Of a stretch of DNA of 52,087 nucleotides, positions 4,662-30,714 are shown one piece after another; the first letter of the stretch is position 1, and each line of letters begins with the position of its first letter. The notes below the pieces were generated by a model. That model had not been told where the DNA came from. It did no database searches and worked only from the letters and a program-made list of their open reading frames with translations. The position numbers and the translations under genes are program-made. The stretch lies in IMG/VR virus record IMGVR_UViG_3300024246_000007, positions 1 to 52,087 of that record. The stretch is one strand, 5' to 3'. Origin of the DNA: a virus (lineage: Duplodnaviria > Caudoviricetes).

Positions 4662-6482
4662 TCAGTTCTCCATTGCCTTGAGCCAGCGCTGCCAGGCGGT
4701 TTCGAGTACGTCGATCGTGTCGCGCTTCCACACGGTCAACTGATGCTTTCCCAGCCAAGGGAAGGATTCGGGAGGCGTGATGCCGCCGAACCGTTGCCAC
4801 CAGCTTTCACCCATTGAGACCGGCCGGAGCGGGTCTATCTCGGCCGATGGCTTGATTTCGATGAATGGCCAGTCCGAGAACTGCAGCAGCTCTGCCGGGC
4901 CGTTGGCGACGATCATGTTGCACTTCGCAGCGGAATAGAGCGCGGCGCGGGTGATCAGGTCCAGCGAGGCTTCCGGATAGGTGGCAAAGTCATCAAGCGG
5001 CTCATGCGCCTTGGCGGTGTCGCGCACGAAGACGACGTTATGCCCTTCATCGCGGCGCCGACGCGCGAATTCCAGCCACGCATTGATATTCGAGTTTCGC
5101 TCCGGAGAATAGCGTGTCTCGCGCAGCGTGATCACGATCGGGTCACTGAGATGACGGGTATACAGCCGCCGTAGCACATGCATGCGAGCGGCCATGGGAA
5201 CTTCGACCTTCGGCACCTCTTCCCCGGTCTTGAATCCGTCCGTGATCGGCCGATACCAGTAATGATATTGCCGGCCATGGATCGCACCGGGCTCTTCCTT
5301 GGCGCCGAACAAGGCAAGAGCAGGCCGCATCACCTTATCCATGATTTGGCGCTTCTCGGGCAGGTTCTGAACGTCGCCCTTCCGGAAACCCTCGTCAGTT
5401 CCGTCGACAAAGGCGACCAGCAACGGGGCCGGTGCACCGCGGCGCCGACGATCCATCTCCGCATTCACCAGCCATGTGATGAAATCGAAGCTCGCCGGCA
5501 CCTTGGAGAGATCACAGGTCGCTGCGTTATCGGGCCATGCCGAAATCATCTCCCGGGCGATGGTCGGCAACAGCCCATCGCCGTGAACCGTGATGGTGCA
5601 GCCGAATTCGGCCAGCATGCCAGAGAAGCGCGTGAACGCTTCGGCCTGCTTGAACATGGCAAACGAGCAGTTGAACTTGCGGCCGGCGCAGATAATGCCT
5701 AGGCGCTTGGATTCGGCCTTGTTCTTCTCCTGGTCATAGGCATGCGCCCGGCCGTCGTCGCTATCCGACGAGTCGTAGCCGTAGAGATGCAGCATCCGAT
5801 AGCCCAGCGCGGTTGCGGCCGAGATCGCGACCAGCCCCACCGTGATCATGCCGCCAACCAGAACGATATTCCGTCCCTTGTTCCGGCTGTTGGACAGGCA
5901 TTCGTTCAGATCCGGGTGCGGCTGGTGAAACATGGTCACGTCGGCACCGCGCTCGACCAGATAATCAAATAGCGACGGGTCGCACATCGATGACAGCAGA
6001 TAGCGCTTGGCGTGCAGCCCATCGAGGAAGGCGACATTCCCCGGCCGCGCATCGCAGATCACCTGATAGTCGACCTCGATGCCGTGATCAGAGAGATATT
6101 TGGCAGAGCCGTTCAGCGCGAATATCTTTTGGCCGTAATTCTTCCGTTCGGCTATTTCGTATAGCTGGAGCTCGACCGACGTCCCGCCGCCGACCATCAC
6201 GGCATGACCTTCATGCGGGCCGGTCAGATTGAGCCACGGCACATCGGTGCGGGCTCCGTTCGCGGTCATATTGCGCAGGTGCGTCGCAATCGTCGAGTTT
6301 TGCAATGCGTCTACCTGCATCTGCCATTCAGGGATCTCAACTTCCGTGATCCCATCTTCAAGCATAGCGGCGCGAATTACCTTCTGCTCGTCGAACTCGA
6401 TTGCTACCGAAATTTCGGCATTTTCTCGCTCAGGCGACCACAGCATATTTCCTGCATCTTTAATCTTAGGAAGAAGATTCAT
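4662..6482 (-). CDS. Two-domain protein: DUF115/Maf/MptE-like domain plus putative GT-B glycosyltransferase domain
   Basis: 606 aa; 'AVMVGGGTS...IFALNGS...DYQVICDARP...LGYRMLHLYGYDS'; C-term 'IVITLRE...RNSNINAWLEF...VVFVRD...RAALYSAAKCNMIVANGP'. Confidence 0.6.
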   Translation of the reverse strand: MNLLPKIKDAGNMLWSPERENAEISVAIEFDEQKVIRAAMLEDGITEVEIPEWQMQVDALQNSTIATHLRNMTANGARTDVPWLNLTGPHEGHAVMVGGGTSVELQLYEIAERKNYGQKIFALNGSAKYLSDHGIEVDYQVICDARPGNVAFLDGLHAKRYLLSSMCDPSLFDYLVERGADVTMFHQPHPDLNECLSNSRNKGRNIVLVGGMITVGLVAISAATALGYRMLHLYGYDSSDSDDGRAHAYDQEKNKAESKRLGIICAGRKFNCSFAMFKQAEAFTRFSGMLAEFGCTITVHGDGLLPTIAREMISAWPDNAATCDLSKVPASFDFITWLVNAEMDRRRRGAPAPLLVAFVDGTDEGFRKGDVQNLPEKRQIMDKVMRPALALFGAKEEPGAIHGRQYHYWYRPITDGFKTGEEVPKVEVPMAARMHVLRRLYTRHLSDPIVITLRETRYSPERNSNINAWLEFARRRRDEGHNVVFVRDTAKAHEPLDDFATYPEASLDLITRAALYSAAKCNMIVANGPAELLQFSDWPFIEIKPSAEIDPLRPVSMGESWWQRFGGITPPESFPWLGKHQLTVWKRDTIDVLETAWQRWLKAMEN

Positions 6483-6718
6483 TATCTCACCAAAACGCCA
6501 GTGAAAGTGAGCGTACTGAAATCATTGTTGGTGTTCTGCTGGATCTCGTCGTCAACGCTGACCATACCCTCAAAATATGAATCAATGGATGTGTTTCCAG
6601 GATCTGTGATGCGGACGATCACATCACCAACTTTTACGCCAACTACACTGATCGCTCCTGACGTGGCTCGTCCTGAGAACGTCACTTTCATGACGGTAGT
6701 AGATGAAAATGTTGACAT
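6482..6718 (-). CDS. Small hypothetical beta-rich protein
   Basis: 78 aa, RBS AAGGAAG, TAATG coupling to downstream gene, AT-richer. Confidence 0.5.
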   Translation of the reverse strand: MSTFSSTTVMKVTFSGRATSGAISVVGVKVGDVIVRITDPGNTSIDSYFEGMVSVDDEIQQNTNNDFSTLTFTGVLVR

Positions 6719-6729
6719 CTCGCTTCCTT

Positions 6730-6765
6730 ATAAAAGAGCGGTGCCCAGTTTTTGCTGGGCACCGC
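6730..6765 (-). terminator. Intrinsic terminator after capsid/decoration genes
   Basis: 11-bp perfect stem GCGGTGCCCAG/CTGGGCACCGC, 6-nt loop, followed by TCTTTTAT on the minus strand. Confidence 0.75.
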
Positions 6766-6773
6766 CAAGATCC

Positions 6774-7331
6774 TCAGATGATCTGCCCCTGCGAGAACGG
6801 ACGCTGCATAACCGCAGTGATCGTCGAAGTCGCCGACGCCACCGTGGCCGCATTGACCGAACGGAGGTTCATGATCTCCTTTGTGGAGCCCAACAGGCTG
6901 GTGACCCGGCCCGCCGTGACACCGCTCAAGTAGAGCGGAACGCTCGGCGAGACCGAGACGGCACCCTTCTTGATGACGGCACAGCCAGCGATCTGGTACC
7001 AGCCATAATAGCCGGATACACAAGCCGCCATCGCAACCGCCAGCGGCTGATTGCCGCTCGCGCCAACGCCAGTCGCCGTCGTCGAGGACAGCGTCGTCGT
7101 GCCGTTCACCGGATCATATGTGACCAGCGAGCCGACAAGAGTCGACGCCACGCCCTTCAGATAGATGAACTCCCCGCCGCCGAACGTCGGGTCGATCGCT
7201 CTCACGATCTCGCCAATGGTATGCTGCGGGTTGAACACGGTCGACTGACCGGGCTGGTAGAGCGTGTTGATCGCGACGGTCGCACCGATCGGCTGGACGC
7301 CGAGACGGTTTTCAGTGGGATTGTATGCCAT
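6774..7331 (-). CDS. Putative capsid decoration / minor capsid protein
   Basis: 185 aa directly after capsid gene; 'GGGEFIYLKG...YYGWYQIAG'. Confidence 0.6.
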   Translation of the reverse strand: MAYNPTENRLGVQPIGATVAINTLYQPGQSTVFNPQHTIGEIVRAIDPTFGGGEFIYLKGVASTLVGSLVTYDPVNGTTTLSSTTATGVGASGNQPLAVAMAACVSGYYGWYQIAGCAVIKKGAVSVSPSVPLYLSGVTAGRVTSLLGSTKEIMNLRSVNAATVASATSTITAVMQRPFSQGQII

Positions 7332-7346
7332 GTGTCATGCCCTCCC

Positions 7347-9500
7347 TTACGCGCCCATCACGCCTTGCAGGAAACGATTCGCCATGGCGATGTTCCCGGC
7401 AAAGCCGATCAGTTTCACCATCGCGTCCTGATTGACGCTGAACCGATCCGGGTCCAGCGGCACGCAATCGCGATCCTTGTGGGGTCGGTAGTAGATGTAC
7501 TCGGTGTTCAGCATGAACATGCTGTTGGTCGGAGCACCGGAGCCCGAAAGCCACGATCCACCGTTACCCAGCACGCTCACATTGCCGGAGCTGTTGCCCT
7601 GGAAACCGCCGTCATAAACGACGTCAGCATCCATGAACTTCAGCGCCATGAACCCGGCCATCGCGCTCCGCTCATCCTGGATACGCTGAATCGCCTGAAG
7701 CGATTCCCAGTAATAACGGAAATACGTATTGTCCGCGATGATGAGGTCCGGACGATCCGCCTGTCGGGCCTGGTTGAGCCACATGCGGTTCATCATGGTC
7801 TGCATCGTCGCAGCGCCGGGCGTCAGGCCTTGGGCAGCGAACGAGAACGCGTTGTTCTGCCAGAAAGCCCAGATGCTCGAATCAATTCCGCCGATCACGC
7901 CGGAATTGTTGGTCGTCGAAACGAGCAGCTGCAGACCACCGATCTGCTTGCCGCCGTCGGCCGTGCCGTTGCTGTAGGCATCGTTGCTCAGATTGTTCTG
8001 GAACGTCCGTTCGGCATTGCCGATGCGGGATTCCAGCAGATCGAGCATCTTTTCTTTGCCCGAGTTCTGGAGCATTTCCAGACCCGAGATCGAAACAGCC
8101 ACCGCAGCTTGCGCGATGGGGTATTGAGCCGCCGTAAAAACGTCTTGCGGCGTGATGTTGAGGATGTCGTCAGTTCTGTTCGCTGCACCGGCTCTTTATC
8201 CGGAGCATCAACCGCTCGCACGGTTGCTCAGACTATCTCTTCGCCTCACCGAGGCGTCGGGCGCTCGTGGTCGGGTTATTGTTGGGACTCACCGACTAGT
8301 CGTTAGAGCTTCCGCCAAACCAAAGGCCCTTGGCGGCTTGCTACGGGATTGCCTCAGAGAGGGTTTCCCCGTTTCACCCGATGTTTGCTCGTCGCTCACG
8401 CGGCGAGAGGACTACCGATTTCCAGAAATCCTGAGTAGCGCTTGTAGGTGCCATTCTCGCTATATTCAATTTCTTGAACAATAGCTTGGCCACCGTCGAA
8501 GGGCTTCACCTTGCCCTTCTGCGAAAGACGACGCAGAAGTGCGTTGTTCTTGGTCCTGATCTTAGCGCGCTGGCTCTTTATCCAGCGCCTGCATCTTCAT
8601 GTTCGATGCAGAGGAGACTATCTCACCACCTGCTTTGCGTCGTGCGTTGGTCTTATTGCGACCTACGGTCAGATCAAGGAGCTTCTTTGCTCGAAACTCT
8701 GGATCTTGCCACAACGCTTTCAATCTCTCGGAGTTCTTCTTTCTCGTCGCTTCCGACGCCACGGTGCGCGCTGCGATTTCTCGCCGCAATGCACTATGCT
8801 CTGGCGTTGCCCTCGCGATATTCGCAAGTGCTTGGGACCTCTTCTTCATCTCTGGGTCCATCAAATGCTTTGCGATGGTGCGCCGCTCTTCTTTCGAGAG
8901 AGCCGCCCAACCGCGCCGCTGATGAACTGAAAGCGCCTGCCCATAAAGCTGAGCCTTGCGCGTGGGAATGAGATTGTAGCCCTTCGCCTCGTCGTCGGAC
9001 GAGTAGTGATCTATCCACCATTGTTCCCGAACAAGCCGCTCGTCTTTTCCGCATTCTTCGATGACGCCGAACTCAAATGCGTCAGCGCCATGCAGCGTAA
9101 AAGATCGTTGCAAGAACTCGTTGGGATGCACGCCGCGCAAAAGATGGCTGCGGTGCTTGTTGAGCCGTGCCCGCATAGTTACGGACGATCCAACATACAC
9201 CTTGCCGTTAACGCGGTTTTTGATGAAATAAACTCCAGATATCATCGCAGATGCCGGGCGCTCGTGGGTGGATTATTCTTTCGTCACCACCTAGTCGTTA
9301 CGCCTTCTATCGCCCTCGTTCAACTCACGAGTGAGTCAAAACTACATCGATAGCTTGGCACGGGATTGGGATTCTCACCGTCCCCCGTTTCACCCGGTTT
9401 TACAACGTCCACTCAATTAAACGTTGTCGGCCAGCTTCCGCGAACGATTGAACAACGTCGTCGTGGTGATTTCTGACCAATTGGTATTCGGGACTGCCAC
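7347..9500 (-). CDS. Major capsid protein, spliced: complement(join(7347..8170,8428..8554,9420..9500)), 343 aa
   Basis: RBS AGGAGA + GTG at 9500; exons join in frame as MAVPNTNWSEITTTTLFNRSRKLADNV|TKNNALLRRL...TYKRYSG Y DILNITPQDVFTAAQYPIAQAAVAVSISGLEMLQNSGKEK...; 81+127+824=1032 nt; follows scaffold gene. Confidence 0.9.
8171..8427 (-). mobile_element. Group I intron 2 of capsid gene (257 nt, no ORF)
   Basis: Exon ...AGGAU pairs with intron GUCCU (U-G at splice site); P3 CGGGUG/CGCCCG; P7 GACUA/UAGUC; P8 CGCCUC/GAGGCG; terminal G at 8171. Confidence 0.9.
8555..9419 (-). mobile_element. Group I intron 1 of capsid gene (865 nt) with homing endonuclease
   Basis: Exon ACAACGUU pairs with intron GACGUUGU (U-G at splice site); P3 CCGGGUG/CGCCCGG; AACGACUA and GAGAUAGUCU core elements; terminal G at 8555. 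Confidence 0.92.
8562..9245 (-). CDS. Intron-encoded GIY-YIG homing endonuclease
   Basis: 'SGVYFIKNRVNGKVYVGSS..MRARLNKH...REQWWID...GYN' followed by a basic helical C-terminal region. Confidence 0.9.
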   Translation of the reverse strand: MISGVYFIKNRVNGKVYVGSSVTMRARLNKHRSHLLRGVHPNEFLQRSFTLHGADAFEFGVIEECGKDERLVREQWWIDHYSSDDEAKGYNLIPTRKAQLYGQALSVHQRRGWAALSKEERRTIAKHLMDPEMKKRSQALANIARATPEHSALRREIAARTVASEATRKKNSERLKALWQDPEFRAKKLLDLTVGRNKTNARRKAGGEIVSSASNMKMQALDKEPAR

Positions 9501-9545
9501 TGATTTTTCTCCTGTCAATGGCGTGTGAAGTGATGGGAGTTTGCG

Positions 9546-10790
9546 TTAGCCGAGTTCGGCCGCCGCTTCCTCCAGCTGTTCGCGCAATGATTGTTCGCCG
9601 CGGATCGGTGCAGACGCCTGGCCGGAGCCTGGGGCTCCAGTGACGCTGGATCCTGCGCGACGTGCGCTTGCCGCTTTGGCCCTGGCCTCTTCTGCAAGCC
9701 TCGTCTGCTCGGCAGCTTTTTGGCTGGCCAGCATGGCGGCTCGCGTCGAGGGGTTTGCCCAGACGGCAGTTTCATAGAGTTCCGCCAAGGGAGGAATCGG
9801 CTGCTTGCTGGCCACGTATGAGGAGGCGAGTGCGACCATTGCTGGCTCGACCTCCTCATAGAACGGGTGCTTCAGCTCGCCGGCTTCGTTGGCTTCGCTC
9901 TTGAATTTGGTAATATCGGCCTCAACAGCGGCTTCGCGCTCCTGGGCCGTTCGAATGGTGGCGTTGCGCTTCTCGCTGTCCTGTGCGTCGAGGCGAGCGC
10001 GGAGCTGCTGCAGCTCAGTGGCCAGCTCTGGCGGCAGCGCGATCGGTTGCGCTCCGGCGGCTGCCTGATCGGTCTTGGCCGGCTCAGTGGCGGGTTGAGC
10101 GGTCCCGGTGGACGTAAACCCCAATGCCTGCGCAAGCTGGGCCTTGTCGATATTGTAGCCCTTGATCATGCCGGCGATGACGTCGACGCCGCGGCCGTTG
10201 GCCAGCGCGGTTTCGACATTCGCCCATGCGCGGATGGTGGCGGCCGGCGTCAGGCCTTTGGCCTTCAGCGTCTCGAGATGCGGCTTGAACATCTCGTCGA
10301 TCGGGCCGAATTCCTTCTGAAGGCTGGCCAGCGCCTCGGATTTCTTGGTGAATCCGGCTTCCATGTCCTTGTAGCGGCGCAGCAGGAACGCTTGCGCATC
10401 CGGCGGCTGAAGCTTGAACATGGCCTTGTCGGAGGCGGACCAGTTAGCGGGCGGCTCCTTGCTGTCAGTGGCCTTGGCGTCGGGCTGCTTGTCGTCGGCC
10501 TTGGGCTCTTCGGCCTTGACCTCGGTTTTGTCGTCCTTGGCCTTGGCTTCCGGCTTTTCCTTGTCGTCGGCCTTCGGTTCGGTCTCTTCCTTCTTGGCGA
10601 ACTTGCCGTCCTTGGCGCGTGCGCGGTCGCTTTCCTTCGGCTCTGGTTCGGTTGCGGCTGGTTCAACCGGATCGGCCGCAGCCGGCTTGACGTCAGCGGC
10701 GGGCGCCTCAGTTGCCGGCGTCATCGCCTCATCGAACGAGGCAGACAGGATCGAGCGGAGGTCGTCGGCGGGAGCTTTATCGTCAGACAT
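9546..10790 (-). CDS. Capsid scaffolding protein
   Basis: 414 aa, charged low-complexity N-term ('RAKDGKFAK', 'PPANW'), helical; directly upstream of capsid. Confidence 0.75.
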   Translation of the reverse strand: MSDDKAPADDLRSILSASFDEAMTPATEAPAADVKPAAADPVEPAATEPEPKESDRARAKDGKFAKKEETEPKADDKEKPEAKAKDDKTEVKAEEPKADDKQPDAKATDSKEPPANWSASDKAMFKLQPPDAQAFLLRRYKDMEAGFTKKSEALASLQKEFGPIDEMFKPHLETLKAKGLTPAATIRAWANVETALANGRGVDVIAGMIKGYNIDKAQLAQALGFTSTGTAQPATEPAKTDQAAAGAQPIALPPELATELQQLRARLDAQDSEKRNATIRTAQEREAAVEADITKFKSEANEAGELKHPFYEEVEPAMVALASSYVASKQPIPPLAELYETAVWANPSTRAAMLASQKAAEQTRLAEEARAKAASARRAGSSVTGAPGSGQASAPIRGEQSLREQLEEAAAELG

Positions 10791-22981: not shown

Positions 22982-23905
22982 TCAGCGCGGCGAATGGAGC
23001 GCGGCGGCGCCAGGGCCGTGAGAGACTGGAGAAACGCGATCCGGTGAGGTCTTGGAAGGCGCCGCAGCCGGCGCAGCGTTGTGAAGATGTCCATTTCTCT
23101 TTGCCTTTGCCTTGGAGCGGGCTTTAGTCAGCATTCTAGCTTTGATTGACTCGCGCTTGGCCTCGTTAAGCCAATAGATGACGGTGGATGGGTTAAGTCC
23201 CGTGGCCCGCGAGATGGCTGCGTAGGTGAGCTTGGCCATCCGCAGCTCTACGATTGCCTCGCGGCGGGCTGCGCTGATGATGTGGCTCCGGTTGGCGCCG
23301 TAGAACATCGTTGCGGTGATATTGAATTTGGTGCAGATGGCGCGGACGATCCGGCTTTTATCGTCAACATTGTCCTCCGGTGCGGCAGGCGTGTCGGGCC
23401 CCTTTGCCGGCCTCTGCGCGCTTTCCCCTAACAGGATCTTGTCGACGTGGGCCGCATCATAAGCGATCGTCCAATCGTCTCGAGCCAAATCCTTGAACTT
23501 CTGGAACCCGTGCATGACCGATGCATGGTGAAGGCCGAGCGACTTGCCAATCTGGGTGAACTTCTTGCCGGCATAGCGGGCCAGGAACATGAATACCCAC
23601 CGCGGGGCTATTTCTTCGGTCGTACGGCCATCCGGATTGTCCATCTCGTCAAGCGACCGACCGAAGTATTTGGCTACCGCGCACTTGATGTCGAAAATTT
23701 CAGCATCGCTGTCGTTGGAAAGTTTCAATGTCTCGGGCGATGGCCCGTATTCAGGATGTTGTTTCATCAACCGCCGCAGCAGCATCGCACTTGCGATCTG
23801 GTTTCTCGGATGATGGCGCTTTTGATAGTCCATCCCATCGCCTTCCGGTCTCAGCATTGAACAACTTCCTCCTGTTGATAAAACGTTCAAGTCTTTGGCG
23901 GGCAC
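22982..23905 (-). CDS. Protein with two DnaA C-terminal-like HTH domains
   Basis: 'IKCAVAKYFG...R.VFMFLAR...QIGKSLGLHHASVMHG' and 'IVRAICTKFNI...R...ARREA...ISRATGLNPSTVIY'; start uncertain. Confidence 0.65.
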   Translation of the reverse strand: MPAKDLNVLSTGGSCSMLRPEGDGMDYQKRHHPRNQIASAMLLRRLMKQHPEYGPSPETLKLSNDSDAEIFDIKCAVAKYFGRSLDEMDNPDGRTTEEIAPRWVFMFLARYAGKKFTQIGKSLGLHHASVMHGFQKFKDLARDDWTIAYDAAHVDKILLGESAQRPAKGPDTPAAPEDNVDDKSRIVRAICTKFNITATMFYGANRSHIISAARREAIVELRMAKLTYAAISRATGLNPSTVIYWLNEAKRESIKARMLTKARSKAKAKRNGHLHNAAPAAAPSKTSPDRVSPVSHGPGAAALHSPR

Positions 23906-27124: not shown

Positions 27125-27343
27125 ATGACACCCTGCAGAACCTGCGACAACGTCCACAGCACGACGCGCAAGCTGTCATACACGCAGTGGACATGCGTCA
27201 GGTTCCCCAAGGTAGCAGGGCTTAATCCGGTCGACCCAGAAGGCTGGATCGACCCGCCTTACATGCGGTGCGCTGGGATTAATGGGGGGCACTGTCCATT
27301 GTGGACGGCTCGACGCGAAGGACAGCAGGACAACGGCCTATGA
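27125..27343 (+). CDS. Small Cys-rich protein
   Basis: CxxC...C...C...C; coupled to downstream gene. Confidence 0.5.
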   Translation: MTPCRTCDNVHSTTRKLSYTQWTCVRFPKVAGLNPVDPEGWIDPPYMRCAGINGGHCPLWTARREGQQDNGL

Positions 27344-27978
27344 GCTTTTCGGAACAACAAAAGAACGATCTGGCCGCAAAGCTTCCCATGAGCGCCGTCA
27401 AGTCGCGCGATCAGGCTGGCCGGCAGGTCTCCTACGTCGAGGGCTGGCATGTCATTGCCGAGGCCAACCGTATATTCGGGTTCGACAACTGGACACGCGA
27501 AACGCTGGACGTTCGCTGCGTAGCCGAGAAAGACCGCGAGATTGGCAAGGCGAAGCTTCCAGGCTTTGGCGTGACCTACATCTGCAAGGTCCGCATCATC
27601 GTCGGCGGGGTAGCGCGCGAGGGCTGCGGCGCCGGCCATGGCATCGACCGTGACCTTGGGCAGGCTCATGAGAGCGCGATCAAGGAAGCAGAAACGGACG
27701 CGATGAAGCGCGCGTTCATGACCTTCGGTAATCCGTTTGGTCTGGCGCTCTATGATAAGGAGCGCACCAACGTTGCGGATGAAGCGGACGAGAGCCGCCT
27801 GCGGTATGTCTCCGACTGCATGGTCAAGATCGCAAACTTCCCTGACCAGGACCCTCGCATTCTCCCTTGGTGGGACGGCGAAAAGCAGGCCAGACGCGAC
27901 TTCGGATTGACCAGCGATGAGGTCAATAAACTGAAGGAAATGGTAATCGCCAAACTTCCGAAGAAGGCCGCAGCATGA
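27340..27978 (+). CDS. Rad52/Rad22-family (Sak-like) single-strand annealing protein
   Basis: 'SYVEGWHVIAEANRIFGFDNW...REGCGAG...AIKEAETDAMKRA...FGNPFGLALYDK'. Confidence 0.9.
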   Translation: MSFSEQQKNDLAAKLPMSAVKSRDQAGRQVSYVEGWHVIAEANRIFGFDNWTRETLDVRCVAEKDREIGKAKLPGFGVTYICKVRIIVGGVAREGCGAGHGIDRDLGQAHESAIKEAETDAMKRAFMTFGNPFGLALYDKERTNVADEADESRLRYVSDCMVKIANFPDQDPRILPWWDGEKQARRDFGLTSDEVNKLKEMVIAKLPKKAAA

Positions 27979-29330: not shown

Positions 29331-29891
29331 TTGGAAACAAAGGCAAACATCATGGATAAGATTGACGAAGAACTTCGCAACGCCTTTGAGCAGGAGATTG
29401 CCAAGGGTCTGACCGAGAAGGCAATCGAGGGATTGCAAAAGGATCTCCGCAAGGTCGCGGACTCCTTCGAAGACGATTTCATGTGGAACCTGAAGGACAA
29501 CCTCGCCTACAACCTCACTGGTTGGGTCGTCGACATGGCCGAGCGCGCCGTCGAGCAGATGCTTGCCGGCAATGACGACCAGATGCGCCGCTATCTGTCG
29601 TGCGACAAGAGCGGCGAGGATGGCCAGTATATTTGCTTCACCGGCCGCAGCGACGGAGCTTATTTCGGAGCTAGACGCAAAGACCACGAACAGCATCCGG
29701 TCATCCATGGCCGCCTTTTCGAACAAGGCGCCGTCGAATTGCGCAAGAAGGTCGCGCAGGCCAATGAGGCACTGATCCGCGACGAGCGCATTCTCGATTT
29801 GGAAGATCAGGTCAAGTCGCTAGTCGCTCAGGTCAACAAAGCGATCGCCGAGAAAGATGCAATGTGGGAGCGCGTCAGGGCGCTTTCGTAA
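29331..29891 (+). CDS. Coiled-coil hypothetical protein
   Basis: 186 aa ORF; start may be the internal ATG. Confidence 0.55.
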   Translation: METKANIMDKIDEELRNAFEQEIAKGLTEKAIEGLQKDLRKVADSFEDDFMWNLKDNLAYNLTGWVVDMAERAVEQMLAGNDDQMRRYLSCDKSGEDGQYICFTGRSDGAYFGARRKDHEQHPVIHGRLFEQGAVELRKKVAQANEALIRDERILDLEDQVKSLVAQVNKAIAEKDAMWERVRALS

Positions 29892-29910
29892 ATTGGGAAT
29901 TAGCGCTGAA

Positions 29911-30714
29911 ATGAACCCTTACGTGATCCAAGGCCCGGCATTGATCTCGTTCAGCGGCGGTCGCACCTCGGCCTATATGCTGCACGAGATCCTGTGCGCT
30001 CACGATGGCAAATTGCCCGATGATGTGCATGTCACCTTTGCCAACACTGGGAAAGAGCGGGAAGAGACACTTCGATTCGTCCACGACTGCGCCACTCATT
30101 GGAACGTGCGTGTGCGCTGGCTTGAGCGTGCAGATAGCGGTTTCACTGAGGTCGGGTACAACAGCGCCAGCCGAAAAGGCGAGCCGTTCGCGGCCCTTAT
30201 CGCCAAAAAGAAATATACACCGAATGCCGTGACTCGGTTCTGCACGGTCGAACTCAAGATCAGGGTAATGCGCGACTTCGGCCGATCGGTCGGTTTCGAG
30301 ACATGGGACAACGTGATCGGGCTTCGCTATGACGAAGGTTTGCGCGTCATGAAGGCGCTGGCACGCAACGATGAAGCAAAGGAACGATTCCGCGCCTTGA
30401 TGCCTCTGTCGAAAGCCAAGGTCACAAAGCGCGACGTAATGGCTTTCTGGGCCGCCCAGCCATTTGACCTTGGGCTAATGTCTTATGAGGGGAACTGCGA
30501 TCTCTGCTTTCTCAAGTCGAGAGCAAAGCTCGCGGCTATCATGCGCGAGAACCCTGGCATGGCCGATTGGTGGATTGAGCAAGAGAAGGTCGGCAAAGGA
30601 CGGTTTGTCACTGAGTACAGCTACGCCAACCTACTCGACCATACTGAGCGCTCGCCAACTCTATTTGATGATGAGCACGACGTTGAATGCGGGCTGCACT
30701 GTGCAGCCGAATAA
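29911..30714 (+). CDS. PAPS-reductase-family (PP-loop, Fe-S) protein
   Basis: 'SFSGGRTS', 'NTGKE', 'RFCT.ELK', 'GLRYDE..R', 'GNCDLCFLK'. Confidence 0.8.
   Translation: MNPYVIQGPALISFSGGRTSAYMLHEILCAHDGKLPDDVHVTFANTGKEREETLRFVHDCATHWNVRVRWLERADSGFTEVGYNSASRKGEPFAALIAKKKYTPNAVTRFCTVELKIRVMRDFGRSVGFETWDNVIGLRYDEGLRVMKALARNDEAKERFRALMPLSKAKVTKRDVMAFWAAQPFDLGLMSYEGNCDLCFLKSRAKLAAIMRENPGMADWWIEQEKVGKGRFVTEYSYANLLDHTERSPTLFDDEHDVECGLHCAAE

Follow-up and report, generated by a model that had tools for sequence, protein, structure and literature searches.

Group I introns have been described in phage capsid genes; statements on these papers, here and below, refer to the portions of their text available to us. 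RT-PCR and N-terminal sequencing demonstrated that a capsid-gene intron of the mycobacteriophage LittleE is spliced (Pope et al. 2013), and the same report cites a capsid-gene intron in the lactococcal phage Tuc2009 (PMC3706429). In crAss-like Delta and Zeta phages the capsid gene is a typical group I intron target and in one case is broken into five pieces (Yutin et al. 2021, PMC7886860), and splicing in intron-rich jumbo phages was observed in metatranscriptomes (PMC12880540). The usual phage intron type is IA (PMC11878797, PMC11835236). The intron tables of PMC12880540, PMC11878797 and PMC11835236 may hold further capsid-gene introns. Early in-frame stops are known for bacterial group I introns, where they keep ribosomes out of the ribozyme (PMC3073962).

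The split capsid gene described here is itself of this already known kind, and the conserved tail encoded at the start of its second intron is the more interesting feature. LittleE resembles the present locus in the U at the end of the 5′ exon, the terminal G, the temperate-phage major capsid gene that is interrupted and the presence of a homing endonuclease ORF. LittleE has one intron with an opposite-strand endonuclease and an actinobacterial host, whereas two introns and a same-strand GIY-YIG gene in P8 are found here; the available text of PMC3706429 does not mention a degradation tail. The crAss-like phages are another phage group with another host phylum, and in the available text their introns are inferred from endonuclease domains, without mapped boundaries. 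The T4 td intron with I-TevI and the IA introns of Bastillevirinae share with this locus an IA core, a GIY-YIG ORF that runs from a loop into the core helices, and a stop just past the 5′ splice site (PMC3073962, PMC11878797). They lie mostly in DNA-metabolism and terminase genes rather than in a capsid gene, the I-TevI ORF sits in P6 whereas the intron-1 ORF sits in P8, and the stop is described, in the available text of both papers, without a peptide tail before it.

The window is the whole 52,087-nt stretch analysed, IMG/VR record IMGVR_UViG_3300024246_000007. Sequence, structure and homologues together support the reading that its minus-strand capsid gene contains two group I introns (Table 1). 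The joined exons (81 + 127 + 824 nt) form a 1032-nt frame of 343 codons with a single terminal stop, and re-joining reproduced exactly the exon limits that the first-pass annotation had proposed for one 343-residue frame. Both introns follow an exon U and end in G (G8555 in intron 1, G8171 in intron 2), again as that annotation had it. Junction 1 can be shifted by one base with the U, the G and the protein all kept; 9420 was chosen because a P1 of 8 pairs fits there. In unspliced RNA read in the capsid frame, TAA is the first codon of intron 1 and TGA the eleventh codon of intron 2. Both stops had been noticed earlier, while the Leu-Ala-Ala that precedes the TGA and the endonuclease of intron 1 had been missed. 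The full capsid protein would require splicing of both introns, a view that the joined frame supports. Inteins or read-through as an account of the inserts were ruled out because exons 2 and 3 do not share a reading frame. The record has one major capsid gene only, no second copy being found in it.

Table 1. Features of the split capsid gene and its introns, in window coordinates.
Feature	Position	Strand	Description
Ribosome-binding site AGGAG	9509..9513	-	8 nt upstream of the GTG start; read directly from the sequence
Capsid exon 1	9420..9500	-	27 codons, last base U; median 85% identity to 52 homologues of 343 aa
Group I intron 1 (predicted)	8555..9419	-	865 nt, IA-type (P7.1, without P2), after codon 27, phase 0; in-frame TAA at start
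Intron 1 P1	9427-9420/9409-9402	-	strands located
Intron 1 P3	9397-9391/9260-9254	-	strands located
Intron 1 P7	9296-9292/8620-8616	-	strands located
Intron 1 P8	9253-9247/8633-8627	-	strands located
GIY-YIG homing endonuclease ORF (predicted)	8562..9245	-	227 aa; starts in P8 loop of intron 1 and runs through P8', P7' and P9; PF01541 E 2.9e-9
Capsid exon 2	8428..8554	-	127 nt, last base U; phrog_9953 positions 29-70; median 93% identity to homologues
Group I intron 2 (predicted)	8171..8427	-	257 nt, IA-type, ORF-less, after codon 69, phase 1; RF00028 51.1 bits
Leu-Ala-Ala-stop, capsid frame	8396..8407	-	5' strand and loop of P2, intron 2; predicted ssrA-like tail
Capsid exon 3	7347..8170	-	824 nt including stop; phrog_9953 positions 72-326, E 1.4e-79

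Sequence profiles and Atlas features identify the predicted product as a major capsid protein of phrog_9953 (major head protein), of the Mx8/ppBjS10J-1-like kind. Its gene is flanked by the portal and by virion genes. The product matches annotated capsid proteins over its full length, the nearest annotated relatives being Bradyrhizobium phage ppBjS10J-1 (major capsid protein, 51%) and Myxococcus phage Mx8 (42%); the Pfam SU10_MCP match falls below the cut-off, and no solved structural relative was found when sought by sequence. Among the 120 homologues listed, 52 are exactly 343 aa long, share 73-89% identity with the joined product and align gap-free across both junctions, so the proposed collinearity with intron-less homologues holds. 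The 8-residue stretch over junction 1 is identical in 33 of these 52; the 9-residue stretch over junction 2 is identical in 20, and 22 more differ by a single Ile/Val exchange. Eight of the 120 homologues listed (P0001, P0003, P0018, P0034, P0038, P0040, P0069 and P0070) begin with residues from an intron 3′ end and are mis-called split genes. It is mainly for annotation that split capsid genes matter in themselves.

The first-pass annotation had claimed P1 with a U-G pair, P3 and P7. These were found in both introns together with further core helices, the full set located being P1, P3, P4, P6, P7, P7.1, P8, P9 and P9.1; P1 of intron 2 has 5 pairs. Against the Rfam model RF00028, whose cut-off is 50 bits, intron 2 passes (E 2.2e-11), while intron 1, whose core is split by the 684-nt ORF, stays below it at 25 bits (E 0.0014). 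A fast whole-window Rfam scan at the curated cut-off reported neither intron, and Rfam at E≤1 plus four motif searches found no further introns in the window. Across 18 related introns including intron 2, 93% of 820 cells are paired and 33 of 46 core pairs are compensatory, bearing in mind that the structure was drawn from intron 2 and that relatedness inflates compensatory counts. None of 500 shuffles was as high, slid controls were 34-38% paired, and RNAalifold independently recovered most of the same helices. P7, with its guanosine-site G-C pair, is 100% paired in these 18 introns, and in intron 1 it was recognised by locating its strands. Folding of intron 2 alone is no better than shuffles (z -0.79), and its structure therefore rests on covariation. 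The P6a and P7.1 loops of intron 2 (~8329-8325 and 8289-8285) seem, by eye, to co-vary across the aligned introns, possibly as a P11-like tertiary pairing.

Subgroup IA is marked by an additional helix, P7.1, which lies between P7 and the P3 3′ strand. P7.1 is 100% paired among the 18 related introns, with compensatory change in four of its five pairs. On P7.1, both introns are assigned to subgroup IA, a scheme that fits phage introns poorly (PMC11878797). No promoter-like site was found in 7000-10000. Apart from 87 nt in Bacillus phage SP-15, GenBank phages gave no near match to intron 2.

The intron-1 ORF is classified as a GIY-YIG homing endonuclease by motif and predicted catalytic residues. 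It matches the I-TevI catalytic domain (E 3e-13), and the Arg and Glu that are replaced in two solved mutant chains are present. Intron 1 most likely spreads by homing with this enzyme. To place both introns among relatives, protein searches yielded 181 loci, some contigs occurring twice, of which 152 span the whole gene; 27 of these 152 are split, four of them by at least two introns, and 125 are intron-less. Together with LittleE, Tuc2009 and the crAss-like cases, this makes two introns in a capsid gene less unusual than had been stated. The first 101 loci include 15 with insertions, 19 in total, spread over 10 sites. At all 21 junctions, including the two of the window, a U...G solution gave the top protein score or one no more than 3 points lower (it was preferred whenever within 6 points). 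All three ORFs scanned in relatives at site 27 are GIY-YIG; antisense HNH genes are present in five introns at codons 62-69 (L014, L036, L038, L048, L058). In three further loci (L003, L023, L057) LAGLIDADG-like ORFs are seen by eye, without a Pfam hit. All eight of these antisense ORFs sit in the intron's 5′ portion, and the opposite-strand endonuclease of the LittleE intron is a published precedent for them. We infer that intron 2, which has no ORF, belongs to a family in which the other introns at this site contain an antisense HNH gene. In the closest relative (L001, 95%) intron 2 is absent, and an intron-like end occurs at codon 62 instead. As read from these sequences, the pattern of sites and endonucleases is that of homing elements targeting conserved codons. 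Three intron-less loci, left out of the intron counts, show a one-base frameshift just past the codon-27 insertion site (L006:560-640, L007:3835-3915 and L239), either a sequencing error or the scar of an imprecise repair.

The phage looks temperate. Profile matches in the record include a terminase, a portal, a repressor and an integrase, and the record is linear, with a completeness of 87%. In genomes, the capsid genes nearest to this one belong to Xanthobacteraceae and other alphaproteobacterial bins (77-79%), which suggests, from related capsid genes only, an alphaproteobacterial host, for example one of the Xanthobacteraceae. No integrase relative was found in genomes, and the host is therefore not fixed. 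Elsewhere in the window, a 606-aa protein with an MptE-like domain (PF01973, E 1.3e-10) is encoded at 4662-6482 (-) inside the virion gene block, a PAPS-reductase-family protein at 29857-30714 (+), a Rad52-family recombinase at 27301-27978 (+) and a protein with DnaA C-terminal helix-turn-helix repeats at 22982-23905 (-). A 700-codon open frame at 6204-8306 (+), which overlaps capsid exon 3 and the neighbouring next gene in antisense, is probably a shadow frame.

Reading through into intron 2 adds ten residues to the capsid frame and gives a 79-aa unspliced product ending in Leu-Ala-Ala. The first set of relatives has 19 distinct introns; 7 stop at once, and of the 12 read-on products 11 end in Ala-Ala, tails of this set having been seen by eye before counting. 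Metagenome loci fetched later, after 19 duplicate rows were dropped, added eight new introns; three stop at once and all five read-on products end in Ala-Ala. Pooled over the close relatives, 16 of 17 read-on introns end in Ala-Ala (13 in LAA), cases that come from six sites and are not independent, compared with none of 54 off-frame readings. The background is 57 of 1301 ORF ends and ~0.5% in shuffles. At the site of intron 2, nine of ten introns end in LAA with only synonymous differences in those three codons, and the intron codons upstream vary freely. The Ala-Ala ending is conserved at the peptide level. An immediate stop, without a tail, occurs in 10 of 27 close-family introns, including two at late positions (codons 106 and 171). 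An antisense endonuclease ORF as the source of the tail was ruled out, since ORF-less introns carry the tail too. A screen of ORF ends at 124 intron-motif loci in unknown genes was excluded from the counts as too noisy.

Terminal Leu-Ala-Ala is recognised by ClpXP. The tmRNA (ssrA) tags computed for five genomes with related capsid genes end in QAA, VAA or LAA. The tags of likely hosts share with the predicted intron-2 tail a hydrophobic residue followed by Ala-Ala. The predicted tail is encoded in intron DNA in the frame of the host gene, whereas the ssrA tag is added by tmRNA, and the predicted intron tails are mostly without the upstream part of the tmRNA tag. In one relative, read-through at L023:4206-4248 gives a near-complete tmRNA-like tag (AANDD...GLAA-stop). 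In the literature searched, with subscription journals outside the scope, no report of Ala-Ala or His intron read-through tails was found.

A competing explanation, which we take seriously while judging it somewhat improbable, is that both introns are spliced and an early in-frame stop is all that selection favours, so that the Ala-Ala or His residues would be a by-product of RNA structure and shared ancestry with no role in proteolysis. The precedent of early stops in bacterial group I introns (PMC3073962) fits this. The stop of the window is in the GNRA loop of a G+C-rich P2 stem, which could by itself yield Ala codons, and some tails lie in the guide strand, where the exon constrains them. 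However, only 4 of the 16 Ala-Ala cases share this arrangement, with the stop following a G as a GNRA loop requires. The tails use all four Ala codons and several Leu codons, and they are found in more than one helix, at 3-14 codons, in introns of all three phases and of differing core types. The purely synonymous changes in LAA at the intron-2 site, beside freely varying upstream codons, also argue against a by-product.

More distant capsids bear on the same question. In those found by intron motif, several with doubtful boundaries, Ala-Ala ends 1 of 19 read-on products; three others end in His, as does the one exception in the close family. A further set, fetched after a prediction had been recorded, comprises 215 loci, of which 175 are intact; from the other 40, 26 were aligned, with a single locus taken per contig. 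This sister lineage, whose best genome match is one Acidobacteria bin (92%), yielded 55 new distinct introns, of which 16 stop within one codon and 39 read on. Ala-Ala ends 3 of these 39 (P 0.27 vs background). The Ala-Ala tail is lineage-limited, and a universal one is rejected; its absence from most of the distant capsids fits the by-product reading. His ends 9 of the 39 (background 3.4%, off-frame 0/110, P ~5e-6, a value that ignores relatedness), and the remaining 27 match neither tail. All His tails of the sister lineage are at codon 289 or later: at late sites they end 9 of the 17 new read-on products, and at earlier sites none of 22. Five of them share one structural position, the P2/P3 junction, and RNA structure therefore stays a live rival for these.

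The Lon C-terminal degron motif is x-L/I-L/I/V-H (PMC11986505, section 4), and for Caulobacter Lon, too, a terminal His forms part of the degron (bioRxiv 10.1101/2020.06.12.149492). The sister-lineage endings TLH, TVH, ALH, TYH and TIH resemble this motif and the members listed with it (PMC11986505). Endings with a hydrophobic residue before the His are found in L371, L410, L486, L359, L367 and L487, in introns at codons 289-336. The sister lineage has up to nine introns per capsid gene; nine each are present in L359 (1280-5160) and L422 (2369-5492), and several L422 introns are only 179-186 nt and may be degenerate.

For the window, the account that we consider likely is that the two group I introns self-splice to give the 343-residue capsid protein and that read-through into intron 2 ends in Leu-Ala-Ala, probably as a signal to a host protease. 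Following established group I chemistry, guanosine would attack at the U-G pair of P1, with exon joining at the terminal G. This standard two-step self-splicing is most likely for both introns, and both splices would be needed for the capsid protein. Ribosomes that reach an unspliced intron would stop early. With intron 1 unspliced a 27-residue peptide would be released; with intron 2 unspliced, the 79-residue capsid fragment would bear a tail copying the end of the host tmRNA tag. ClpXP-type proteases could then clear a fragment that might disturb capsid assembly, the harm from truncated capsid protein being an assumption. That the extra intron codons, where the stop is not immediate, serve to tag the truncated capsid fragment for removal by a protease seems to us somewhat favoured by the tail comparisons. 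On the wider proposal our judgement is evenly balanced: phage capsid-gene group I introns may carry their own quality control, the first intron codons encoding a host-protease degron in the frame of the gene, Ala-Ala of the ClpXP type here and late-site His of the Lon type in the sister lineage.

It is quite improbable that the introns are a timing or dosage device in which two required splices delay or limit capsid synthesis. Both splices are indeed required and introns occur at many sites of the gene, but most whole-gene loci do without them, and sites and endonucleases vary as expected of selfish homing elements at conserved codons. Less probable still is a dead gene whose inserts no longer splice in a defective prophage: the integrase, the repressor, the linear and incomplete record and the Rfam score of intron 1 would fit, but all core helices are intact in both introns, the exons are free of stops and frameshifts and share 89% identity with an intact homologue, the endonuclease ORF is uninterrupted and keeps its catalytic residues, and a second capsid gene is absent from the record.

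If the tails are degrons, these introns would limit their cost to the phage by splicing, by stopping ribosomes and by destroying the product of failed splicing. Degron tails, if true, would explain how as many as nine introns are tolerated in the most abundant structural gene, and would bear on the viability of intron-crowded phage genes.
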